Assembly: GCA_001804315.1 (NCBI GenBank)
Contig: MHFT01000050.1
Span: 4,600 to 68,599 of the forward strand
Direction: 5' to 3'
Source: Omnitrophica bacterium RIFCSPLOWO2_12_FULL_50_11
GTDB lineage: Bacteria > Omnitrophota > Omnitrophia > Omnitrophales > Danuiimicrobiaceae
DNA: 64,000 nt
Of this stretch, positions 6,118 to 63,916 are shown piece after piece (the stretch's first letter is position 1; every line of letters begins with the position of its first letter). The notes under the pieces were generated by a model. It saw only the letters and a program-made list of their open reading frames with translations. It searched no databases and had not been told where the DNA came from. A program made the translations under genes and the position numbers.

Positions 6118-7111
6118 CCAGTACCTCTTGCATCGATTAACGGGGCAGATCGAACGGAGACAATTGAGTTCGACTTATCTGTTCACGGGCCCTGAGTCCG
6201 AAAAGAACAAGCAGCTGGCAATCGCGTTCGCACAAGCACTGAATTGTCCGCGAACTGAGCGTCCCGAGGCGCTGCCGTGCGGCTGCACTGTCTGTCGAAG
6301 GATTGAAGCAGGTGTCCATCCCGATGTGATGTGGTACGGGACCGATGAGGAGTCGAACGCAATCAAAATTTCCCAGGTGCGGGAATTTCGAAGTTTGCTT
6401 GCGTTAAAGCCCTTTGAAGGAAAAGTGAAGGTGTTCATTTTTAACGGTGCCGAACGCCTATCGAGTGAGGCCCAAAACGCGCTCTTAAAGAGTCTAGAAG
6501 AACCGCCGAGAGGGAACGCGATCGTTCTTTTGGTGCCGCAAGCAAACGTCCTTTTTGACACAGTCGTTTCCCGCGCCCTTGAAATTAAAGTACCGCCTTT
6601 TAAGACGGAAGAGATTCGAAACATCCTCGTCGAAGAAGGCGCGGCGGAAAAAGAAAGCGAGTTTTTAGCTCGGATGGCTCAGGGAAAGCTCGCCCGTGCC
6701 CGAGAAGCGCTTCAGGAAGGATGGTTTCACACTAAGAATCAGTGGCTCGATTCGCTCGTCAAAAACCCAATCGCCTTTCTGGACCAATTTGGCGAGTCCT
6801 CCCGCGGTCACATTTCGGTCGTCCTCGCGTTTTTGCTTGAGTGGCTGCGGGATGTTCTCGTTTTTGAGGTTTCGGGCGAGAGTGAATTTCTGGTCCATGC
6901 GGACCGGATCCGGCTCATCGAGTCGTACGCTGAGCGTTATCCGTTTGATTCCGTCTTGGAGCTGTTCGAACGAATCGAGGAGATTCGAAAGGCACTTCGA
7001 GATTACGGAAATCAAAAACTTGCGCTCACGCAGACTCAAATCTTGTGGGGTAAAGTGGTGGGGAATGATCCCCCACCATTTATTCTCAAGAAACCAGATG
7101 GTGGGGGATGA
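6095..7111 (+). CDS. holB: DNA polymerase III delta-prime subunit
   Basis: AAA+ clamp-loader fold. LFTGPESEKNKQLAIAFAQALNC with Cys cluster CPRTERPEALPCGCTVCRR. Placed between tmk and metG as in Firmicutes. The last ~15 codons are encoded by a repeat hairpin. Confidence 0.75.
   Translation: MSSAGLVDQYLLHRLTGQIERRQLSSTYLFTGPESEKNKQLAIAFAQALNCPRTERPEALPCGCTVCRRIEAGVHPDVMWYGTDEESNAIKISQVREFRSLLALKPFEGKVKVFIFNGAERLSSEAQNALLKSLEEPPRGNAIVLLVPQANVLFDTVVSRALEIKVPPFKTEEIRNILVEEGAAEKESEFLARMAQGKLARAREALQEGWFHTKNQWLDSLVKNPIAFLDQFGESSRGHISVVLAFLLEWLRDVLVFEVSGESEFLVHADRIRLIESYAERYPFDSVLELFERIEEIRKALRDYGNQKLALTQTQILWGKVVGNDPPPFILKKPDGGG
7055..7110. repeat. Family-A element at the holB/metG junction: GTGGTGGGGAAT + GATCCCCCACCAT - 18-nt loop - ATGGTGGGGGAT
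   Basis: 12-bp stem 7068-7079/7098-7109, loop TTATTCTCAAGAAACCAG. The loop is the rc-relative of the 2246-2263 loop (both share CTGGTTTCTTG). Confidence 0.85.
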
Positions 7112-8619
7112 GTAAGCCGTTTTACATCACGACCCCGCTTTATTATGTGAATGCGAAGCCGCATATTGGCCACGCGTATACGAATATTGTATGTGATACG
7201 TTTGCACGGTTTCACCGGTTTTTGGGTGAAGAGGTGCGGTTCATGACGGGCACCGACGAACACGGCACTAAAATTGACCGGGCAGCAAAGGACCAAGGCA
7301 AAGATGCAAAGGTCTATGTCGATGAAATGGTTCCGCTTTTTCAGAGCCTTTGGAACCTCCTTGGAATCCAGTATGACTACTTCATCCGGACGACCGATGA
7401 CAACCATCACCAAATCCTTCAAAATATTTTTAAAACATTGGAAGCGAAAGGTGATATTTATCGGGGAAAATACAAAGGTTGGTATTGCACGCCGTGCGAA
7501 TCTTTTTGGACCGAAACGCAGCTTGCGGAAGGCAAGTGTCCCGACTGTCACCGCGACGTCCAGCAGCTCGCAGAGGACAATTATTTTTTCAGACTTTCCA
7601 AGTATCAGTCATGGCTCGTGGGTTACCTCCGCGACTCGCCTAGGTTTGTCTGGCCGGAAACACGCAGGAATGAAATCTTATCGTTCCTCGAACGGCCGCT
7701 TGAAGATCTTTGCATTACTCGCCCTCGCGCACGTCTGACGTGGGGGATTGCGTATCCTTCGTCGCCTGAACACGTGGTTTATGTTTGGTTTGATGCGTTG
7801 GTGAATTATGTGAGCGGTGTCGCTTACTCGAAAGACATGAAACAATTTTCTCGATTTTGGCCGGCTGATCTGCACGTCGTGGGTAAAGACATTTTACGCC
7901 AGCACGCGATTTATTGGCCGATTATGCTGAAGGCGATTGACGTCGAGATGCCGCGGACCGTTTTGGCGCACGGATGGTGGACAATTGAGGGTTCGAAAGT
8001 GTCTAAGTCGAGAGGCAATGTTGTGGACCCGTTTGAGATCGTGAAGCGTTACGGGGCAGATGCATTCCGTTACTATCTGTTGCACGAAGCGAGGCTGGGA
8101 CTCGATGGTTCCTATTCAGAGGATTTACTGGTCGAGCGCTTGAACAGTGACTTGGCGGACGACTTGGGGAACCTCGTGCTGCGGGCGACCTCGATGCTCG
8201 AGCGGTACTTTAGTGGAAGGATTCCTGACGCGACAAGCTCCGCTACTCCTCTGCGCGGGAAACTAGCGAGCATGACCGATCTGGTCAAAAACGCGATGCT
8301 CGGTTTCCAGCCTTATGCAGCACTCGACGCAATTTGGGAAGTCGTGCGCGAAGCGAATCGTTTTGTCGAGCAGAATAAGCCTTGGGTCCTCGCCAAAGAA
8401 AATAAGAAAGAAGAACTGGGCAACTTCTTAGTCGGTTTACTCGAGACGGTTCGGCTTTTGGGCTTGGTCCTCACCTCTTTTCTGCCCTCTACTGCCGAGA
8501 AGATACTGAGTTCATTGGGAATCAACGGACGACCCAGCATCCAAGACATGCAGTGGGGATCCTTAAAAGCCGGCGTGCGCGTAGAGAAGGGCGTACCTTT
8601 GTTTCCGAAAGTTGAGTAA
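7108..8619 (+). CDS. metG: Methionyl-tRNA synthetase (short form)
   Basis: FYITTPLYYVNAKPHIGHAYT (HIGH), KVSKSRGN (KMSKS), CPDCHRD zinc knuckle. ATG overlaps the holB stop (ATGA) inside a repeat arm. Confidence 0.9.
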   Translation: MSKPFYITTPLYYVNAKPHIGHAYTNIVCDTFARFHRFLGEEVRFMTGTDEHGTKIDRAAKDQGKDAKVYVDEMVPLFQSLWNLLGIQYDYFIRTTDDNHHQILQNIFKTLEAKGDIYRGKYKGWYCTPCESFWTETQLAEGKCPDCHRDVQQLAEDNYFFRLSKYQSWLVGYLRDSPRFVWPETRRNEILSFLERPLEDLCITRPRARLTWGIAYPSSPEHVVYVWFDALVNYVSGVAYSKDMKQFSRFWPADLHVVGKDILRQHAIYWPIMLKAIDVEMPRTVLAHGWWTIEGSKVSKSRGNVVDPFEIVKRYGADAFRYYLLHEARLGLDGSYSEDLLVERLNSDLADDLGNLVLRATSMLERYFSGRIPDATSSATPLRGKLASMTDLVKNAMLGFQPYAALDAIWEVVREANRFVEQNKPWVLAKENKKEELGNFLVGLLETVRLLGLVLTSFLPSTAEKILSSLGINGRPSIQDMQWGSLKAGVRVEKGVPLFPKVE

Positions 8620-9407
8620 TGGCGTTTGTCGATACGCATGTTCATCTTCATTTTCCGGAGTTTCGATCTGAAATCGAGCAGGTCGTCCAAAGGGCGCGGG
8701 ACGCCGGCGTTCGCTGTTTGATTAATGTAGGAACGGATTTGGAATCTTCCAGGAGAGCAGTGGAGGTTGCGGAGCAGTACGATTTTGTTTTTGCAACGGT
8801 TGGCATTCATCCCCATGATGCAAAAGAAGCAACGTCCCGAACATGGAACGAAATCGCCAAGCTTGCCCAACATGACAAAGTGGTTGCGATTGGCGAAGTT
8901 GGACTCGACTTTTATCGGAATCTTTCGCCCAAAGAGGTTCAGAGACAGGTGTTCATACGGTTTATGGAATTGGCAACGCGAACGGACTTGCCGCTTGTCT
9001 TACATCTTCGCGATTCGTACGAGGAGGCCGTTGAACTCTTAGAAGCTCATATGAAACCGCCTATTCGAGCGGTGAGTCACTGCTTTTCGGCAACGATGGA
9101 AATCATGCAAAAACTTGTTCGATTGGGTCTCTACATTTCATTTGCCGGACCTGTTTCATATCCAAGGAACGAGGAGCTCCGTGAAGCTCTAGCGGCGTGT
9201 CCTGAGGATCGGCTCTTGCTCGAGACGGATGCGCCGTATTTGGCGCCGCAAGCGTTCCGGGGAAAGCGCAATGAGCCGGCGTACCTCGTCGAAACAGCCC
9301 GACGGATTGCCGACGTGAGGGGAATTTCACTTGACGAATTGGCAGAACGGACTTCTCAAAACGCGGGTGCACTCTTTGGACGGCGCTTCCAGACGGATAT
9401 GGTATGA
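8619..9407 (+). CDS. tatD: TatD-family metal-dependent DNase/hydrolase
   Basis: VDTHVHLHF at N-terminus; follows metG as yabD/tatD does in Bacillus. Confidence 0.85.
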   Translation: MAFVDTHVHLHFPEFRSEIEQVVQRARDAGVRCLINVGTDLESSRRAVEVAEQYDFVFATVGIHPHDAKEATSRTWNEIAKLAQHDKVVAIGEVGLDFYRNLSPKEVQRQVFIRFMELATRTDLPLVLHLRDSYEEAVELLEAHMKPPIRAVSHCFSATMEIMQKLVRLGLYISFAGPVSYPRNEELREALAACPEDRLLLETDAPYLAPQAFRGKRNEPAYLVETARRIADVRGISLDELAERTSQNAGALFGRRFQTDMV

Positions 9408-10483
9408 AAACGATCATCGCTGAAATTAAGGAATTGTTTCGTGCCGAAAGGCTCTATTTTTACCTGCTCGTCGCTCTCGTGACGTTTTACGCGGTGATTC
9501 TGGTCGCAAGTCGAATGGCGCCGGATCAGCTTTCCCGCGCCGAACGCGGGCTCCAAATGAAGGAAGCCGTATGGAAGGAAACGCCGCAAGCGCCGCACGA
9601 GTTCCAGGCGCGATGGTCTGAGCGAGCAAAGGTTTCGTGGACGTTCAAGATTTCCAATTACCTTTTGATGGCGGCCATTGGTTTAGGAATTTGGCTGAGT
9701 TCGAAGGATCTCTATCAGTGGTATCTAAAAAAGGAAGTGATTCCCCCTTCGGCGAAATTCTTGAACATTGGATGGGGGATTTCAGAAGTGGTCAAGGTGG
9801 TGATTCTTTTCATTCTCTGCGGCACCGTCGTCAATATCGGATTCGTGATCGTCAAATTTCTGTATTTAGCTGCTGTGCCAGGTTCTATTTTAATTCTGGC
9901 TCAAGCGTTCGTATTGGACGTGATTGCTGTGTTCTTAATGGTTGGAGTCATTAGAAAACATGGTTCAGCACTCCGTGATTTACTGGGTTTTGACGTCTTG
10001 AATATTTCGCTCCGTGAAATTTGGCTGGGCGCTCGAACCTATTTTGTTATTCTCCCGATTTTTTTTGTTATGTTGATCCTTATGATCCTGGCAGCATCGT
10101 GGTTGAGGTACGAACCGCCGCCCCATCCACTGGTCGGCGTTTTTTTAAAAGAAGGACCTTTATCGCCGTGGCTGATCGCAGCTTCCATGCTGCTTGCTTG
10201 TTTCATTGGGCCTGTGGTGGAAGAGATCTTTTTTCGAGGTTTTCTCTATCCCGCTCTGCGGCGATACTGGGGCATCCCGTGGTCTATGGTGGTTACGGCT
10301 GGTTTATTCGCTGCGGTGCATGAGAATTTGTTCGCGTTTATTCCTATTTTCTTTTTGGGTCTCGTGCTCGCTTACCTTTATCAAAAACGGGATAACCTGG
10401 TTCCGTGCATATCGCTTCATGTCATGCACAACGTCGCGTTTATTACGTATTTCTTTTTAATTAAGAGCGCCCTGACAGGTTAG
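9404..10483 (+). CDS. CPBP-family intramembrane metalloprotease (CAAX protease/Abi) with a long N-terminal membrane region
   Basis: EEIFFRGFLYPALRR, AAVHENLFAF, HVMHNVAF motifs of PF02517. Multiple predicted TM helices. Confidence 0.7.
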   Translation: MKTIIAEIKELFRAERLYFYLLVALVTFYAVILVASRMAPDQLSRAERGLQMKEAVWKETPQAPHEFQARWSERAKVSWTFKISNYLLMAAIGLGIWLSSKDLYQWYLKKEVIPPSAKFLNIGWGISEVVKVVILFILCGTVVNIGFVIVKFLYLAAVPGSILILAQAFVLDVIAVFLMVGVIRKHGSALRDLLGFDVLNISLREIWLGARTYFVILPIFFVMLILMILAASWLRYEPPPHPLVGVFLKEGPLSPWLIAASMLLACFIGPVVEEIFFRGFLYPALRRYWGIPWSMVVTAGLFAAVHENLFAFIPIFFLGLVLAYLYQKRDNLVPCISLHVMHNVAFITYFFLIKSALTG

Positions 10484-10511
10484 GAAGCGCGGGCCGCTTG
10501 GGATCTAGTGG

Positions 10512-11114
10512 ATGACTTGGATCGTTGGGATTTTTGTTTTTCTGATGAGCATGACGGTGCACGAAGCGTCACACGGGGCAGTCGCTTTTATTCGTGGCGA
10601 CCGAACCGCAAAAGATATGGGACGTTTGACGCTCAATCCGCTGCGGCACATCGATCTCTTCTGGACGGTTTTGTTTCCCGCGCTGCTCTTTGTATCTACG
10701 GCGGGACAGTTTGTGATTGGGATGGCGAAGCCAGTACCCGTCAACTTTGCCAACTTGTATCACCCGAAGCGCGATATGATTTGGGTCGCTTTGGCAGGTC
10801 CTGCGGCGAACATCATTTTTGCCGAATTCCTGCTCTGGGCGCTGCACCTGACCCATCTTCGGGTTTTCCTGCTCGGCGTATACTTTAATCTAGGTCTGGC
10901 GGTGTTTAATTTGCTGCCGATTCCACCCTTAGATGGTTCGCGTATCGCAGCGGGTGTTCTGCCGCGTCCGTGGGATCGCGAGTACCTCAAAATAGAACCA
11001 TACGGTTTTTTAATTGTACTTGTGCTTTATTTTACGGGTGCTTTATATGCGTGGGTGATTCCAGGGATTAACTTATTGGCGTCTTTTTTGGGGATCCCAA
11101 AGTTATATTTATGA
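10512..11114 (+). CDS. Small site-2-protease-family (peptidase M50) zinc metalloprotease
   Basis: HEASH (HExxH) in a TM helix, LPIPPLDGSRI (LDG motif). About 200 aa, all membrane. Stop TGA lies within an ATGATCCCC repeat-like terminus. Confidence 0.7.
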   Translation: MTWIVGIFVFLMSMTVHEASHGAVAFIRGDRTAKDMGRLTLNPLRHIDLFWTVLFPALLFVSTAGQFVIGMAKPVPVNFANLYHPKRDMIWVALAGPAANIIFAEFLLWALHLTHLRVFLLGVYFNLGLAVFNLLPIPPLDGSRIAAGVLPRPWDREYLKIEPYGFLIVLVLYFTGALYAWVIPGINLLASFLGIPKLYL

Positions 11115-11119
11115 TCCCC

Positions 11120-11240
11120 TTTTTGGGTCATCCCGAAATTCGCAAAATCCGAAAAACCCGAAAAAAAGAGAAAGAAAAAAGGAAGCGAAAAAAGAAAGAG
11201 AAAAACGGCTGCTATTTTCTCACCTTAAAAACCTAAGAAA
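11120..11240. repeat. Homopurine (A/G-rich, GAAA-like) low-complexity tract of about 110 nt
   Basis: ccgaaaaacccgaaaaaaagagaaagaaaaaaggaagcgaaaaaagaaagagaaaaacgg; the + strand is almost entirely purines. Confidence 0.8.
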
Positions 11241-11245
11241 TTGGT

Positions 11246-11518
11246 CTAGACAATGGGGTCCACTTCCGATGAACATAAAATATTTGTAAAAAAATAACCT
11301 GTTGGATGCTCCAAAGTTGCATATCGAAAAATACCGCCGGTTACGGCGATGATCAAATCAACGGTTATCCAGTTGCTTCCTTCTTTGAAATATGCAAAAT
11401 CATCCGGTGGGGACAGGGCCGGTCCGGCGATGGGGATGATATTGGCAATGCCCTCAGGCGTATCCGTGTCTCTGATCTCTATAAAGTGACCAGTTCCGTC
11501 TTGAAGTACTCGGTACAT
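11246..11518 (-). CDS. Hypothetical 90-aa protein. Its ATG lies 2 nt downstream of the higA stop, making it a possible third gene of the TA operon
   Basis: ATG at 11518 follows the higA TAA (11521-11523) with a 2-nt gap. No recognisable motifs. A + strand alternative ORF also exists. Confidence 0.3.
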   Translation of the reverse strand: MYRVLQDGTGHFIEIRDTDTPEGIANIIPIAGPALSPPDDFAYFKEGSNWITVDLIIAVTGGIFRYATLEHPTGYFFTNILCSSEVDPIV

Positions 11519-11520
11519 TT

Positions 11521-11862
11521 TTAAGCTGCCTGACGATCTCTTTTTGCAATTGCCTGTCCAATTTTATGCAAGGCCTCTCGGCTAATAGGGATGGCCTGCA
11601 AACGTACTGTATAACCGAGATGGAGCAATATCTTTTCGAGTGTCGCAACACTTGAAAATTCTCCGCTCTCCATTTTGGAAATATGCTGCTGGGATACACC
11701 AATCTTCTCGGCCAATTGTGTCTGATTCAGTTTGTGCTTGATCCGGTAATCAACGATCTTTTTCACAATCTCGAGTTTCTGCTCCTCAAGCTCGTGAAGT
11801 TCCTTAAAATAGGGATCCTTGAGCTTTTCCTGCAGATGCTTGTCAACGCTTTCCGTCTTCAT
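11521..11862 (-). CDS. higA: HigA-like antitoxin, XRE-family HTH protein. Start trimmed to MKTESV at 11862
   Basis: HTH_3 signature KLNQTQLAEKIGVSQQHISKMESGE. SD GGGGTGA precedes the ATG at 11862. Lies immediately downstream of the toxin gene. Confidence 0.7.
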   Translation of the reverse strand: MKTESVDKHLQEKLKDPYFKELHELEEQKLEIVKKIVDYRIKHKLNQTQLAEKIGVSQQHISKMESGEFSSVATLEKILLHLGYTVRLQAIPISREALHKIGQAIAKRDRQAA

Positions 11863-11887
11863 TTTGATCACCCCATTTCTTTCCATC

Positions 11888-12247
11888 TTATTTTTGCTTT
11901 CCTGTTCTTTCCAAAAAGAGCTTCCGTCTCTGAATCGCAACTTCCCTTTCGTTCTTTGGCGTCTTATCGGATTTCTTAATAAAGCCATTTGTGAAAATTG
12001 CCCGGTCCTGATGAAAGAAAAAGTATAAAACCCTTATAGCTCCCTCCCGTCCCTTGAACCTGAGTTCTAATATCTCATCGCCTATATACTTTGCATGGGG
12101 CTGCGGAAGCTTGTGTCCAAACTCTTCCAGCAGACCTACAACGAAGAAGAACTTCCGCTGTGTCTTCGGAACCAGTGAATCGATGAACTCTCGAACCGGC
12201 ACCCAGCTTGAATCCGTGACGAAGTATTCGCATGATACCTTCTTCAC
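11888..12247 (-). CDS. higB: HigB-like toxin (RelE/ParE superfamily, Gp49/DUF891 type). GTG start
   Basis: ELRFKGREGAIRVLYFFF...IFTNGFIKKSDKTPKNEREVAIQRRK matches the HigB-2/Gp49 pattern ELRx..G..RV.YF....L.GF.K..K.P..E...A. Toxin-upstream/antitoxin-downstream order is typical of higBA. Confidence 0.65.
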   Translation of the reverse strand: MKKVSCEYFVTDSSWVPVREFIDSLVPKTQRKFFFVVGLLEEFGHKLPQPHAKYIGDEILELRFKGREGAIRVLYFFFHQDRAIFTNGFIKKSDKTPKNEREVAIQRRKLFLERTGKQK

Positions 12248-12272
12248 TTCACCCCCTGATGTTATATTACAA

Positions 12273-12305
12273 CCATTTAGTAGTATGCCACCATTTAGTT
12301 GTATG
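12273..12305. promoter_or_regulatory. Two 15-nt direct repeats (CCATTTAGTAGTATG / CCATTTAGTTGTATG) overlapping a TTGACA -35 upstream of higB. Candidate operator
   Basis: Tandem repeats separated by CCA, abutting the rc TTGACA at 12304-12309 on the minus strand. Confidence 0.45.
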
Positions 12306-12317
12306 TCAAGTTGGCCA

Positions 12318-12366
12318 TTAAAGTAAAAACCGCCAGATGCCTATAGGAAGGACACCCGGCGGTTCT
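12318..12366 (-). terminator. Rho-independent terminator for the GH130-GT4 operon
   Basis: Minus strand reads AACCGCCGGGTGTCC...CTGGCGGTT (7-bp GC stem) followed by TTTTACTTT, about 140 nt after the GT gene stop. Confidence 0.55.
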
Positions 12367-12505
12367 GTTTCTCTTTCGATTTTTTGATGGGAGAACAATT
12401 GGCTCCCCGTACTGGACGACTTTCGCAACTGGGCACTATCTACCACAGAGACGGGAATCTTCAAAGTCCATTTTGAGGCAGCTATTTGTTAGGAGTAGGA
12501 AATCA

Positions 12506-16000: not shown

Positions 16001-17290
16001 TTAATCGAGCCTGTCCTTTAAAACATATCCCGTTGTCCTGCCGTCACCGATTTTTTGAATAAGGCCCGCTTCGAGCAATCGGTTGAAATCCTTGCGCGCT
16101 GTTTCGTCGGAGCATTGATTGAGCTTGCAATACTTCCTGGTTGTCATTTTCTCCGGATGTTCGAGCATCCACTGAAGCGCTTTAATTTGTTTCTTGTCAA
16201 GTTGGGCTTGGGCCTTTTGGCTTAAAACATCGCGGATGTCCCTGACCTTTGTTTCTTTCGCAATCTCGATCTGAACGTTTTTTAATTGCTCCGCCAGAGC
16301 TGTCAGGTAATAAAGAATAAAAAACGTTGCATCGCTGTCATGGGCCTCGGCATTCTGGATAGCACGGTAATATTCACCGCGATGATGGTCAAAATAATCC
16401 GATGGGACAAGGAAATTGATAAATTGATAGCCCTGCTTCATCAGATACAAATTTGATAATGCTCGGGCCGAGCGGCCGTTGCCATCATCAAAAGGATGAA
16501 CATGCACGAAATAAAGATGCACAAACGCGGCCTTTATCAGAGGGTGATTTTCAAAAGTATCATTCATCCACTGAACGTAAGAATCCATCATTCGCATCAC
16601 TTCGGATGCCGGAGGGCCTTCATAAACAACTTGCCCTTGGCCGTCTACAACATAGATGGGGCCTTTACGGTACCCCCCGACGGTAATGGGTCTTTTCTTA
16701 TGGGTGTTCCTTACAAGAATCTTGTGAAGCTCGCAGATCATTTCATGGCTGAAAGGATTTGCGCTTTGCCCACGGATATATTCTAAGGCGTCCCTGTTAT
16801 TGACGATCATTTGAAGACTTTCATCTCCATAATCTTCCCGGGAAGGTTTGTTCAAGTGGAGCAAAGCCACTTCCAGACTCGTTACGGCCCCTTCAATATG
16901 GCTGGAGTAATAAGCTTCCTTTTTTTCGGTTTCAGACGCTAGACGATCGAGAAATTTTTTCGGAAGCTTAAGCGAAGCTAAAAATCCCCTGTTCCTTTCG
17001 ATCTCGGAGATGAGGGCCAGAAGAGTTGGGGGCAGAACAAACCAAAAAGGTTTTCCTTTTTTATCAAGAAGATCCAGACGGTTTGCCTTGCGGAGACGGT
17101 CTTCTTCAACCTCTCGCCATTTTTCGGGGCTGTATTTGGCCAGGATTTTTTGTTTTTCGAAGTAATCTTCCATAAAAGTTAATCGCCAACTATTCGCCAA
17201 TAATATACCCGGTTTCTTGAGGATTGTCCAGAGGGGATTTTTACGAATTCGTAGTTCGAAATCGCCAATAAAACGCCAATTATTCGCCAA
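16001..17290 (-). CDS. Class II Fic-family AMPylator (Fic/DOC) with C-terminal winged HTH. Likely true start MEDYFEK at 17173
   Basis: Canonical Fic motif HPFDDGNGRSARAL; N-terminal inhibitory motif SSHIEG, i.e. (S/T)xxxE(G/N); C-terminal wHTH. Confidence 0.85.
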   Translation of the reverse strand: MANNWRFIGDFELRIRKNPLWTILKKPGILLANSWRLTFMEDYFEKQKILAKYSPEKWREVEEDRLRKANRLDLLDKKGKPFWFVLPPTLLALISEIERNRGFLASLKLPKKFLDRLASETEKKEAYYSSHIEGAVTSLEVALLHLNKPSREDYGDESLQMIVNNRDALEYIRGQSANPFSHEMICELHKILVRNTHKKRPITVGGYRKGPIYVVDGQGQVVYEGPPASEVMRMMDSYVQWMNDTFENHPLIKAAFVHLYFVHVHPFDDGNGRSARALSNLYLMKQGYQFINFLVPSDYFDHHRGEYYRAIQNAEAHDSDATFFILYYLTALAEQLKNVQIEIAKETKVRDIRDVLSQKAQAQLDKKQIKALQWMLEHPEKMTTRKYCKLNQCSDETARKDFNRLLEAGLIQKIGDGRTTGYVLKDRLD

Positions 17291-28218: not shown

Positions 28219-28983
28219 ATGAACTATAACCTGTTGATATGTCTAGACTTAGGTAATTCATGTGCAACGTACGGCATTCATAGAGGTGGGAGGCTGTGTG
28301 CGACAGGATATGTCCCATCAGTCGATATCCCAGATCTTATGCGAATTATAAGGAAAAGTGGGACACAGGACATATCGATTGACTACATGATATGTAGTGT
28401 CGTCCCAGATTTGACAAGAAAACTTGTAGCCTCCATAAAAAAGTTGAGGAACACGGATAAGGTGTTTGTAATTGGAAAAAATCTGAGATTTAGGTTTCCT
28501 ATGCGATATTCGTCGAAATCTCTTGGCGCGGACAGACTCGTAAACCTTTATGGTGCGCGGCTGCTTTACAAAGCTCCTTGCCTTATTGTCGACTTTGGGA
28601 CCGCGATTACCTTCGATTATTTATCGAGGTCAGGCACATTTGAGGGTGGTCTGATTTGCCCGGGCGTGGAATTATCAGCTAAGGCTCTCAGTGAAAAGGC
28701 TGCGCTTTTGCCTTCTCTTACGAAAATTGAGGCGGCTCGGAGTTTACTGGGACGCGGAACGAAAGCAGCGATGTGTGCAGGCCTGCTTAATGGTTTTGGT
28801 GCTCTGGCCGATGGTTTAATCGATAGGTTTCGAAAGGAGTATGATCGGCAGATCAAGGTGATTGCAACAGGCGGCTTTTCGACGCGGATTGCTCCTTATG
28901 TGCATCGTATTGATGTTGTAGATCCGTTGCATACGCTCAAGTCGCTTGCGTTAATTTACAAAAATGAAGTCGGCGAAGCGTAA
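28219..28983 (+). CDS. coaX: Type III pantothenate kinase
   Basis: LLICLDLGNSCATYGIH (ASKHA phosphate-1 motif), VDFGTAITFD, TGGFS. birA-coaX adjacency is common. Confidence 0.8.
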   Translation: MNYNLLICLDLGNSCATYGIHRGGRLCATGYVPSVDIPDLMRIIRKSGTQDISIDYMICSVVPDLTRKLVASIKKLRNTDKVFVIGKNLRFRFPMRYSSKSLGADRLVNLYGARLLYKAPCLIVDFGTAITFDYLSRSGTFEGGLICPGVELSAKALSEKAALLPSLTKIEAARSLLGRGTKAAMCAGLLNGFGALADGLIDRFRKEYDRQIKVIATGGFSTRIAPYVHRIDVVDPLHTLKSLALIYKNEVGEA

Positions 28984-28995
28984 GCGGCAGGGCAA

Positions 28996-29460
28996 ATGAG
29001 GAGGCAAAGAAGGCGGTTCTTCAATTTCTTAACGAATGGGCCGCCGCAGCGGTATTTCGTCGCGTTGCAATTTTGCATCCTTGCCGCGATGTTGCTGTTT
29101 CTCTTGTATGGTTCATTTTATCTGTTCGGCCAGTTTTCGTTGTCAGCACAGGAGCTTGTGTCCACGCCGGCTGAATTCCGTGTTGAGCTGAAAGAATGGT
29201 ACTCACACGTCGTCTTTGCCCTCGCAGGCGTCTTTATGATCGGTTTTGTGATCAATTCGCTCATCGGGCTTATGTTTCTGCATCGCGTGGTGGGTCCGCT
29301 CGTTCAAGTGAAACGAATACTTGATTTGCTTGCAGAAGGAGAATTTCCAGATGGGATCGTTCGGTTTCGCCGCGGAGATTTTACACCAGAGCTTGCGGAG
29401 TCGCTCAATCGGTTAATTGACTTCCTGAGGCATCATGCTTCTGGCCGAGGACGGCGCTAA
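28996..29460 (+). CDS. Small membrane protein: 2 TM helices plus a HAMP-like domain and no output domain
   Basis: LHRVVGPLVQVKRILDLLAEGEF...RFRRGDFTPELAESLNRLIDFL resembles HAMP AS1-connector-AS2. Paralogous to the next gene. Confidence 0.5.
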   Translation: MRRQRRRFFNFLTNGPPQRYFVALQFCILAAMLLFLLYGSFYLFGQFSLSAQELVSTPAEFRVELKEWYSHVVFALAGVFMIGFVINSLIGLMFLHRVVGPLVQVKRILDLLAEGEFPDGIVRFRRGDFTPELAESLNRLIDFLRHHASGRGRR

Positions 29461-29482
29461 GATCTAAGGAATCTGATCGCAC

Positions 29483-29929
29483 ATGTCAGCTTCGAAACGT
29501 TCTAGATCATTGGGTTTAAACATAACGGGGCCGGTTCAAAGAACATTTATTTTGCTTGAATTCATTCTGCTCATGTTAACAATGATTTATCTCTTGTATC
29601 TTATATTTACAACAATTGAGAGCGTCGCAGGGCCCGTAGATACGGCGAAACCCTTCGTTCTCGAGGACGTACTTGACCGAATTAATTTTTTACTTCTGAC
29701 ACGAATTTCGGTTTTATTTCTGGTTGTGTTTGTCGTCAATGTGCTTTTAGGTCTTTTTTATTTACATCGGTTGACCGGACCGCTTGTCAGAATTACGGCG
29801 GTGTTAACTCAGATTGCTCACGGGAAGGTTCCGACACGGGCAGTCACGTTAAGGAGAGGTGATTTTCCAACCGATGTGAGCGACGCGCTCTCAAAGGCGC
29901 TAGAGCGGATTCGCCAGTGGCAGCGGTAA
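29483..29929 (+). CDS. Small membrane protein: 2 TM helices plus a HAMP-like domain. Tandem paralog of 28996..29460
   Basis: LHRLTGPLVRITAVLTQIAHGKVPTRAVTLRRGDFPTDVSDALSKALERI aligns residue-for-residue with the upstream paralog. Confidence 0.5.
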   Translation: MSASKRSRSLGLNITGPVQRTFILLEFILLMLTMIYLLYLIFTTIESVAGPVDTAKPFVLEDVLDRINFLLLTRISVLFLVVFVVNVLLGLFYLHRLTGPLVRITAVLTQIAHGKVPTRAVTLRRGDFPTDVSDALSKALERIRQWQR

Positions 29930-30038: not shown

Positions 30039-31169
30039 TTGGACGCCCCACTTTACAGGCGAGTCTTCTGGATGAGAAAATGGGCGATCGTGTTAGGGCT
30101 GATTCTTATGGTTTTGGCGTCTCAGAGCTCACGGGCCGAGGTTGAGGAAGAGCACAGAATGAAACAGGAAGAGGCGATTTTGGCGGGGGGTTGTTTCTGG
30201 TGCATCGAATCCGCTTTGGAACATGTACCGGGCGTTGTCGAGGTGATGTCGGGCTATACGGGCGGCAGTCAAGCCGATCCGACTTATGAAGAAGTGTCTG
30301 CAAAGCAGACAGGGCATTACGAGGCCGTAAAAGTGATTTTCGATCCTTCCAGGTTGAGTTACAAAGAAGTGCTCGATCAATTCTGGCGGAATATCAATCC
30401 CACGGACGAGGGAGGCCAATTCTCGGACCGCGGCCCCCAGTATCGGACCGCCATTTTCTATTTAAATGAAGAGCAGAGAAAGATCGCGGACGCCTCCAAG
30501 TCTAAAATGGAGGTATCCGGAACGTACGACAAACCCATTGTGACACCGATCCTCAAGGCCGGACCGTTTTATCGTGCCGAGGACTACCATCAGGACTACT
30601 ATCGGAAAAACCCCTTGCACTACAGACTTTACCGGTGGGGTTCTGGACGAGATCAGTATCTCAACAAAATATGGGAAGTGGCGAAAGCAAATCCATCAGT
30701 GAAAGGCGGCAACGCAATGGCGACGAAAAAATACGGAGGGCGCACGGATTCCGAGCTTAAGAAAAGATTGACACCGCTTCAATACAATGTGACACAAAAG
30801 GGCAGGACTGAAGCGCCATTTGCAAACGAGTATTGGAACAATAAAAAAGAAGGGATTTACGTGGATATTGTTTCGGGCGAGCCGCTTTTCAGCTCCACGG
30901 ACAAATTCGATTCGGGTACGGGTTGGCCAAGTTTCACAAAGCTCTTGGTTCCCGAAAATATCGTGGAAAAGGAAGACCGAAAGTTTTGGATGGTCCGCAC
31001 TGAGGTCCGAAGCAAGCACGGCGATTCCCACTTGGGGCATGTCTTCGACGACAGGCCTCGCCCGACCGGGCTCCGCTACTGCATCAATTCTGCCGCATTA
31101 AAATTTATCCCTAAGGAAGACCTTGCCAAGGAAGGCTACGGGGAGCACCTGAAGCTTTTCGAGGCGTAG
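30039..31169 (+). CDS. msrAB: Secreted bifunctional peptide methionine sulfoxide reductase MsrA/MsrB
   Basis: Signal peptide; MsrA GGCFWCIE; MsrB HLGHVFDD...RYCINSAAL. Confidence 0.85.
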
Positions 31170-31303: not shown

Positions 31304-31330
31304 TTAGCAGCCCTTAGTCCTGAGTGCTAA
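31304..31330. promoter_or_regulatory. CIRCE-like HrcA operator, copy 1 (TTAGCAGCC-N9-GAGTGCTAA)
   Basis: Right half-site perfect, left half-site has 2 mismatches to TTAGCACTC. Confidence 0.5.
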
Positions 31331-31356
31331 TCATTTTTTAGAGGTAATTTTTTCAG

Positions 31357-31421
31357 TTGACTCTTTTTCGAAACATGGTATCATCACACCTTCGTTAGCA
31401 CTCTGATCGGTCGAGTGCCAA
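31357..31421 (+). promoter_or_regulatory. groEL promoter (TTGACT-16-TATCAT) followed immediately by a CIRCE element TTAGCACTC-N9-GAGTGCCAA
   Basis: -35 at 31357-31362, -10 at 31379-31384, CIRCE at 31395-31421 with 1 mismatch to consensus. Confidence 0.7.
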
Positions 31422-31507: not shown

Positions 31508-33151
<1,644 letters not shown>

Positions 33152-33280
33152 TATTGAAGAATCGAGAATAAAAAAGCACAAGGCAGTAGCGCGGTAAGCA
33201 GCACACATAAGATCGGTTTCATTGCATGTGGCCGACTGCCTGGTGCCGAGAGTTATACTGACATTAGGAGGGTAGACGAA

Positions 33281-33568
33281 ATGAGCATTAAACCGTTGGG
33301 CGACCGAGTACTGGTTGAGGTTCTGGAAGCGGAAGAGAAGACAAAGGGAGGGATTATTCTTCCAGATACCGCAAAGGAAGAAAAAACAGAGGGAAAGATC
33401 GTTTCGATTGGACTTGGAAAAGTACTGGAATCGGGTAAGAGGCAGCCAATCGACGTGAAAAAAGGCGACCGCATCATTTTTGGAAAATATCACGGAGACG
33501 AAATCTTGATTGACGGTAAAAAGCATAAGGTCCTCAAAGAAGAAGATATCCTCGCCGTTTACGGATAA
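33281..33568 (+). CDS. groES: Co-chaperonin GroES, located downstream of groEL
   Basis: MSIKPLGDRVLVEVLEAEEKTKGGIILPDTAKEEKTEGKIVSIG. SD AGGAGGG upstream. Confidence 0.9.
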   Translation: MSIKPLGDRVLVEVLEAEEKTKGGIILPDTAKEEKTEGKIVSIGLGKVLESGKRQPIDVKKGDRIIFGKYHGDEILIDGKKHKVLKEEDILAVYG

Positions 33569-63550: not shown

Positions 63551-63916
63551 ATGGCGAAGAAGATTTTGGTTATCGACGATGATCCTGATGTAAGAGAGGC
63601 TCTGAAGCTTCGTTTGGAGGCGAGCGGCTATCATGTCGTGACGGCTACAGGCGGGATCAGTGGATTAAAAGTTTTTGAAGAGACACAACCGGATCTCATC
63701 CTGCTCGATGTTGCCATGCCCGACATGGATGGATACGCGTTTATCAAAACCTTTAAGGCGAAGTATTTCGGTCGATACGTCCCCATCATCGTGTTGACAG
63801 GGAAGGATAGCATGAAAGATGTGTTTGAGTTGGAAGGTGCTAGAGCCTATCTCACCAAACCTTGCGATCCTGGTGAATTGGTTCAGACGATACAGAACCT
63901 TTTAAGGTCACGCTAA
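63551..63916 (+). CDS. Stand-alone response-regulator receiver (CheY-like) domain protein
   Basis: KILVIDDDPDVRE (acidic pocket), phospho-acceptor LDVAMPDMDG, T...K...P (LTGKDS...KP). Confidence 0.75.
   Translation: MAKKILVIDDDPDVREALKLRLEASGYHVVTATGGISGLKVFEETQPDLILLDVAMPDMDGYAFIKTFKAKYFGRYVPIIVLTGKDSMKDVFELEGARAYLTKPCDPGELVQTIQNLLRSR

Follow-up and report, generated by a model that had tools for sequence, protein, structure and literature searches.

What can a HAMP domain do in a membrane protein that carries hardly anything else? HAMP is a heavily studied signal-relay module, yet nearly all that is understood of it concerns its part as a linker within larger receptors. The question is raised by two adjacent genes of Omnitrophica bacterium RIFCSPLOWO2_12_FULL_50_11, which lie in a stretch of 64,000 nucleotides (nt) of contig MHFT01000050.1, positions 4,600 to 68,599 (the window, in whose numbering all coordinates are given). 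Gene A (28996-29460, + strand) and gene B (29483-29929, + strand) encode stand-alone proteins of 154 and 148 amino acids (aa), each with two transmembrane (TM) helices and a HAMP domain. We are highly confident that A and B are membrane hairpins with a terminal HAMP, conserved and under selection. Regarding their role, we propose that they are membrane HAMP hairpins acting as dimeric adaptors without an output domain, read in trans by other proteins, and we regard the chances of this combined proposal as evenly balanced.

Both open reading frames (ORFs) begin with ATG and were recovered exactly where an earlier note, made from the DNA sequence alone, had placed them. Gene A is further supported by its HAMP_2 match, its homologues and the ratio of nonsynonymous to synonymous substitution rates (dN/dS), and gene B by homologues, dN/dS and an AlphaFold2 (AF2) model. 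A starts 12 nt after the stop codon of coaX, and 22 nt separate A from B. The clear similarity that the note had seen between the neighbours was reproduced by BLASTP, with 32% identity over 145 columns (E=4e-16), and the motifs LHRxxGPLV and RRGDF are found in both proteins. By this likeness, which is far above chance, A and B are tandem paralogs. No further member of the family was detected elsewhere within the 64-kb window. B is 100% identical to P0015, a protein of the same Omnitrophica bacterium. The long 154-aa form of A is correct, because its N-terminal 30 residues are conserved among homologues, which keep a segment RRRxFSFLxNxPPQRYF in the ~30 N-terminal residues. In P0001 (123 aa), the public clustered call for A, the start is the internal Met32, with the result that the conserved N-terminus and most of the first TM helix (TM1) are lost. 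Starts of this type are probably start-site mis-annotations in several assemblies.

Hydropathy and charge distribution agree with the N-terminal TM hairpin that had been noticed in both proteins. Each contains two strongly hydrophobic segments, the N-termini are rich in K/R (A +6, B +4) with zero acidic residues, and the loops between the helices are short, net acidic and expose 10-20 residues outside. This pattern fits N-in/C-in TM hairpins. In A, TM1 covers approximately residues 19-45 (29050-29130, + strand), as delimited by hydropathy, charge counts and alignment conservation, and the K/R-rich cytoplasmic N-terminus ahead of it carries a Gln conserved in the family (PPQRYF). The second helix (TM2) of A covers approximately residues 69-95 (29200-29280, + strand), with the hydropathy maximum at residue 81 and boundaries aligned with B. 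AF2 and hydropathy place TM1 of B at about residues 20-44 (29540-29614, + strand), inside a predicted helix 17-49, and its TM2 at about residues 66-94 (29678-29764, + strand), which is the N-terminal part of a continuous predicted helix 60-112 that comprises TM2 and the first HAMP helix.

The C-terminal domain of A and B is a complete HAMP. Its layout is found in full: a stretch of some 50 residues that follows TM2 directly, with a first amphipathic sequence (AS1) that starts from a conserved Pro, a connector initiated by Gly and a second amphipathic sequence (AS2). In A (29281-29433, + strand; Pfam HAMP_2, hhalign and heptads) the domain comprises H96-R97, G100-P101, AS1, the connector Gly115, R125..D128 and AS2 to about residue 146. 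In B (29765-29917, + strand) it comprises H95-R96, G99-P100, AS1 to H113, Gly114 and the connector 114-126, D127 and AS2 at 130-147. Residues G99-P100, G114 and D127 (B numbering) are invariant in the family alignment, and the invariants of the whole family are a Gln before TM1, H-R-x-x-G-P at the junction of TM2 and AS1, the connector Gly and an R..D ahead of AS2. Both HAMP helices have a heptad hydrophobic core and the connector contributes hydrophobic residues; columns 97, 101, 104, 108, 111, then 121, 123, and then 132, 136, 139, 140, 143 are at least 97% hydrophobic. In B, L101, I104, L108 and I111 occupy predicted a/d positions.

Profile comparisons support this assignment. When the last 60 residues of 31 family members were aligned, hhalign matched this alignment to Pfam-verified HAMP_2 units from poly-HAMP receptors over 48 columns that include AS1, connector and AS2 (90.4% probability, E=1.4e-6). 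Taken singly, A reaches 23.9 bits on HAMP_2 (PF18947; E=4e-5, residues 95-145), below the cut-off of 24.3, and B reaches 16.1 bits on HAMP_2 and 12.8 bits on HAMP (PF00672), also under the Pfam cut-offs. The HMMER search against PF00672 proposed in the earlier note gave a divided answer, sub-threshold for B itself and above the cut-off of 25 bits for three relatives, P0258, P0280 and P0236 (33.8, 31.7 and 30.8 bits), which match the family profile at E<=1e-27. The HAMP call was upheld by hhalign, by these relatives and by the AF2 model, although A and B themselves stay under the Pfam cut-off. In the exhaustive profile search, long poly-HAMP chemoreceptors were matched solely at profile positions 93-146, and the matches recur at 91-residue intervals and are in register with Pfam HAMP_2 positions 17-67. 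With 7-19 bits per unit, these matches may be taken as supporting evidence, short of proof.

The AF2 model of B (mean predicted local distance difference test score, pLDDT, 76.9) consists of a helix 17-49, a short loop, a helix 60-112, a coil 113-129 and a helix 130-147. TM2 runs unbroken into AS1 and is followed by connector and AS2. Searches of the PDB with full-length profiles were swamped by noise driven by the TM segments, and a HAMP-only profile recovered weakly the HAMP of Af1503 from Archaeoglobus fulgidus, to which we return below.

No kinase, methyl-accepting chemotaxis protein (MCP), GGDEF, cyclase or other output domain was detected in A or B by Pfam and NCBIfam scans, in agreement with the first description of the pair. 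Both proteins end 3-8 residues past AS2. Neither A or B nor any close homologue has HisKA/DHp or HATPase_c, and Pfam finds no MCPsignal domain in A or B. Some homologues bear the Joint Genome Institute (JGI) name 'methyl-accepting chemotaxis protein', which reflects HAMP similarity only. The homologues of A (P0002-P0014, 13 clusters) have 131-155 aa and those of B (45 clusters) 117-161 aa, so that 58 of 58 close homologues, the window's own entries excluded, fall within 117-161 aa, with a common C-terminal end point. Comparison with the closest relative, locus L020, gives dN/dS values of 0.15 (A) and 0.12 (B), next to 0.21 for coaX and 0.11 for msrAB, the gene that follows B. A and B are real proteins of the inner membrane and evolve under purifying selection.

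A-type and B-type proteins separate cleanly by reciprocal BLAST. Because the order A-then-B was found in 7 distinct genomes, B alone in 3 and A alone in none, the duplication is old (~30% identity) and has been retained, and A seems to rely on B. The single copy at L014 is roughly equidistant from both types. Moreover, in P0125, P0149 and P0188 a single chain contains the complete 2-TM + HAMP module twice, which hints, in the Rosetta-stone sense, that two modules cooperate. The absence of A without B, together with these fusions, favours B homodimers and A-B heterodimers.

Proteins of this kind are not rare, as had been assumed. The exhaustive search with the family profile returned 3,857 proteins at E<=1e-3 in several phyla; among 147 newly listed best matches, 71 have at most 210 aa and match over their full length, and 65 exceed 600 aa, most of the latter being poly-HAMP proteins matched only in the HAMP region. 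Named members belong to Omnitrophota, Nitrospiria, Halobacteriovorax, Bdellovibrionaceae, 'Deltaproteobacteria' and Endomicrobia. No family-level model of Pfam or NCBIfam covers A/B-type proteins, and a literature search on HAMP-only or output-less HAMP proteins gave nothing besides Af1503 and no paper on the A/B family. Several variants enlarge the basic plan. P0156 and P0172 have an insert of ~200 aa between the TM helices, P0167 and P0182 carry two or three tandem HAMPs and no output, and in P0191 the ORF is joined to a pilin-like domain. In P0157 (518 aa, L016 1583-3139; four cluster members) the full 2-TM + HAMP module is fused to REC and Hpt domains, and a HAMP leading straight into REC-Hpt is an unusual architecture. 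The P0157 gene adjoins a divergently transcribed REC-HD-GYP gene.

The neighbours of relatives give a further view of the family. A contig scan for family loci with narrow patterns yielded 7 loci, and a metagenome scan with the 'SHRIAGP' subgroup yielded 80, which together with five fetched earlier make 85, with the family gene present in 79. In 29 of these 79 loci (26 clusters at 90% identity) a PDZ gene on the same strand lies directly upstream, mostly overlapping or abutting the family gene (L025 4989-6540; also L027, L043, L044, L045 and L057). It encodes a protein of ~335 aa with a signal peptide, TPR and two PDZ domains. Outside the pair the context is SecA-Lnt-FecR, helix-turn-helix (HTH)-LarB-LarC, or an extracytoplasmic function (ECF) sigma factor with a zf-HC2 anti-sigma, and because these outer genes differ between loci, PDZ-then-HAMP is a genuine two-gene module. 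The family proteins at PDZ loci are 39-74% identical to two Omnitrophota proteins at NCBI, and this subfamily probably belongs to Omnitrophota as well. The PDZ coupling speaks to the logic of the family and not to the partner of A and B. Elsewhere, an SLT lytic transglycosylase gene lies directly 3' of the family gene in L018 (6001-8667), L034, L041, L077 and L081, and one gene further downstream on the P0274 contig; the SLT-linked loci are those of Halobacteriovorax and related metagenome loci. Pilin-like N_methyl genes flank the family gene in L021, L039/L042 and L091, a trypsin-like peptidase gene lies upstream of it in L061 and L063, and genes for REC-PAS-HD-GYP proteins are among the recurrent neighbours. 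Envelope proteins, with occasional receiver-domain proteins, are the shared theme.

How could such proteins work? By analogy with all HAMPs of solved structure, A and B would form parallel dimers in which a bundle of four TM helices is topped by a four-helix HAMP bundle. For B, which some genomes carry without A, homodimers are probable. The probable partner of A is B, without which A was never found, as the single-chain relatives with two modules also suggest. Having neither sensor nor enzymatic output, the A/B pair would most likely be an adaptor: the membrane or a partner protein would impose a TM/HAMP conformation, which another protein would read in trans. A read-out in trans is proposed because some relatives have a periplasmic insertion, others end in REC-Hpt, and others again are tightly coupled to a secreted PDZ protein. 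This adaptor mechanism, taken by itself, is a tentative proposal that we place somewhat below an even chance. The conserved polar cluster at the cytoplasmic face of the membrane (the Gln before TM1 and the His-Arg after TM2) and the Leu at the position of Af1503 Ala291 are candidates for mutational tests.

A and B would form the end of a housekeeping operon, thiL-tsaB-alr-birA-coaX-A-B, and be expressed with it. The scan for promoters and terminators found no such site between coaX and the end of B, and a good sigma-70-like promoter was seen only ahead of groEL. coaX, A and B are probably co-transcribed. Rfam detected no RNA element in the 24-34 kb section of the window.

Several observations weigh against the proposal that A and B are dimeric HAMP adaptors read in trans. 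Both proteins miss the curated gathering cut-offs of Pfam, and Foldseek, run with the B model against the PDB, found nothing significant, the best relevant hit being NarQ at E=5.6. Dimerisation and A-B pairing are steps that we infer, and the AF2 model of a natural two-module fusion provides per-residue confidence only and no contacts. Apart from coaX, which codes for a cytoplasmic enzyme, no partner gene is conserved beside A and B; no homologue of the PDZ protein was found in the window or in the coaX-linked loci; and outside Omnitrophota the family neighbourhoods are heterogeneous.

The same lack of input and output domains would suit structural or house-keeping membrane components, for example envelope organisers, in which the HAMP-like bundle only dimerises and relays no signal. 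Their expression appears constitutive, embedded in an operon without a promoter of its own, and the surroundings are of the housekeeping kind: coaX and groEL for the pair itself, and for relatives a place downstream of rplA in Endomicrobia, or upstream of nusA or of polA-coaE-rho. However, conservation is highest at positions typical of signalling (H-R-x-x-G-P, the connector Gly and R..D), beyond the hydrophobic core, and relatives are fused to REC-Hpt or lie beside genes for ECF sigma/anti-sigma pairs and REC-PAS-HD-GYP proteins. We consider a purely structural role unlikely.

A bolder version of the signalling idea is that A and B together form an obligate heterodimeric, minimal TM HAMP relay, one branch of a widespread split-receptor family; this we hold to be rather improbable. 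The HAMP bundle would then be the whole cytoplasmic part, passing signals to or from separately encoded partners, a notion to which we attach the same low likelihood. Candidate partners in other clades are the secreted PDZ and trypsin-like proteins, lytic transglycosylases, pilins and REC proteins, and in the coaX-linked clade the partner could be CoaX. No histidine kinase or MCP is encoded within the 64-kb window. The stand-alone REC protein at 63551, put forward in the earlier note as a partner, does have a real receiver domain, but its gene lies 33.6 kb away behind a pyrimidine operon, and no REC gene is present in any syntenic locus.

The constancy of the gene upstream raises another explanation, namely that A and B tether or regulate CoaX, the type III pantothenate kinase, and so link CoA synthesis to the state of the membrane. 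The gene coaX (28219-28983, + strand; Pfam Pan_kinase, 147.6 bits) lies immediately 5' of the family gene in 10 of 10 distinct Omnitrophota loci, at distances between the called genes from an 11-nt overlap to ~50 nt spacing, and the adjacency is kept despite a changing downstream gene (groEL, msrAB or a giant gene) and a divergence of the family to ~35% identity. Yet the order thiL-(tsaE)-tsaB-alr-birA-coaX-(A)-B is kept across the 10 loci, and as the thiL-tsaE-tsaB-alr-birA-coaX block is equally syntenic, the adjacency may be inherited operon order. Members outside the coaX-linked clade are not beside coaX, and no biochemical precedent was found; to our knowledge, CoaX has no link to HAMP signalling. 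We judge this explanation very unlikely.

In the neighbourhoods of homologues, which the earlier note had advised to examine, the block upstream is conserved in Omnitrophota, and the msrAB gene downstream is not. The gene after B is groEL in five loci (L001, L005, L006, L007 and L012), a giant gene of 4,931 aa in L014, and msrAB nowhere but in the window and in L020, its nearest relative; three loci end, or have no matching gene, past B. Because the gene after B varies among loci, the msrAB link is not conserved, and the msrAB neighbour is lineage-specific. The periplasmic oxidative-stress connection conceived from this neighbour is accordingly not supported. Widened to envelope partners in general, the idea would be that the A/B pair takes part in envelope quality control with a secreted MsrAB. 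MsrAB has a signal-peptide-like segment if its start is ATG 30072, and other clades are coupled to secreted PDZ proteins (29 loci), SLT (5 loci and one nearby), pilin-like proteins or a trypsin-like peptidase. On the other side, msrAB and A/B largely do not co-occur across the Omnitrophota loci seen, groEL or the giant gene takes its place, and an outer loop of 10-20 residues leaves little surface for a periplasmic partner. This role in quality control is slightly less probable still than a tie to CoaX. Finally, that A and B are truncated pseudogene remnants of sensor kinases or chemoreceptors, an alternative the note itself had allowed for and one that recalls their best partial NCBIfam matches, the TM2-HAMP segments of MCPs and histidine kinases (CtpM, MtrB, WalK, AdeS), is refuted by the data, given the 58 short homologues with the same end point, dN/dS values as low as that of msrAB and below that of coaX, a next gene within 22-110 nt and small stand-alone relatives in several phyla.

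The architecture of A and B is uncharacterised but not unprecedented, as HAMP-only proteins were known before. Af1503, the source of the HAMP prototype structure, is described as a 'non-signaling trans-membrane protein' without the usual coupled domains (PMC3585426). Like Af1503, A and B are transmembrane proteins with a C-terminal HAMP and no downstream output domain, and the HAMP profile of the family spans the whole domain of Af1503 with identical Pro-14-Gly-13-Asp spacing. The sequence match between the HAMP-only profile and the Af1503 HAMP chains, though in register, is weak (E 0.19-0.93). The HAMP of Af1503 begins at about residue 278, as implied by the numbering of A291 (PMC3585426), and is preceded by ~270 residues, against ~95 in A and B, and where Af1503 has Ala291 the family has a conserved Leu (L108 in B). 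Moreover, Af1503 is a single archaeal gene, whereas A and B are much smaller and form an ancient tandem pair of paralogs.

Among HAMP subtypes, the best match is to the HAMP_2 (PF18947) units of poly-HAMP chemoreceptors and kinases. The A/B family shares with them a GPL that opens AS1, the connector (A/S)xG-x-(I/V)-P and a GDF before AS2. Those units, however, are soluble, occur in chains of 5-16 and lead up to an MCP or kinase output, while A and B each have one membrane-proximal unit and nothing downstream. The TM-HAMP stalks of NarQ and of the BceS/LiaS-type intramembrane-sensing kinases differ in that A and B have no DHp/CA core, which makes phosphotransfer impossible. LapD is a membrane protein with a HAMP domain, and by protein-protein contact it governs a protease partner in the periplasm (PMC4359373). 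Receptors of the LapD type are conceptually near to the PDZ- and trypsin-linked relatives, though the analogy extends only to the logic. A and B have neither the periplasmic output domain of LapD nor its cytoplasmic GGDEF/EAL modules.

Output-less HAMP proteins are thus no oddities, as the A/B family has thousands of relatives and is strongly conserved under purifying selection. One phylum has kept an ancient tandem duplication, and in a second subfamily, which probably belongs to that phylum too, the gene is coupled to one for a secreted PDZ protein. How large and how conserved the family is, the pattern by which A depends on B and the PDZ coupling all provide handles on what HAMP does by itself. 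Should a partner and a read-out be found, the family would offer a minimal system in which the action of HAMP alone could be studied in ~150 residues that include neither sensor nor enzyme. If the split-receptor idea were true, HAMP signalling would proceed without covalently attached input or output.

Some minor observations concern the genes around the pair. The ORF for the fused MsrA-MsrB protein (30039-31169) is listed with a TTG start, yet the true start is probably ATG 30072; from there the protein has a signal-peptide-like N-terminus and is probably exported. The msrAB gene was found only in the window and in L020, and lnt follows it in L020 too. Two CIRCE-like inverted repeats (controlling inverted repeat of chaperone expression), TTAGCAGCC-N9-GAGTGCTAA at 31305-31331 and TTAGCACTC-N9-GAGTGCCAA at 31395-31421, lie upstream of groEL. 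They flank a sigma-70-like promoter at 31357-31384 (10/12 matches, extended TG), which suggests control by HrcA. Within 31523-33568, groES (33281-33568; 95 aa, 85% identical to the groES of L020) lies downstream of groEL. This groEL-groES order is the reverse of the canonical groES-groEL and is the same in related Omnitrophota loci, some of which (L001, L007) have a second groEL after groES. L014 represents a divergent Omnitrophota lineage, and its region 6691-12504 holds the single-copy family gene followed by the 4,931-aa ORF, which has methyltransferase, metallo-beta-lactamase and beta-CASP matches. Far upstream in the window, at 16001-17290 on the - strand, a 428-aa protein with a Fic/DOC domain is encoded amid genes for glycosyltransferase, GH130 and DEAD-box helicase proteins.
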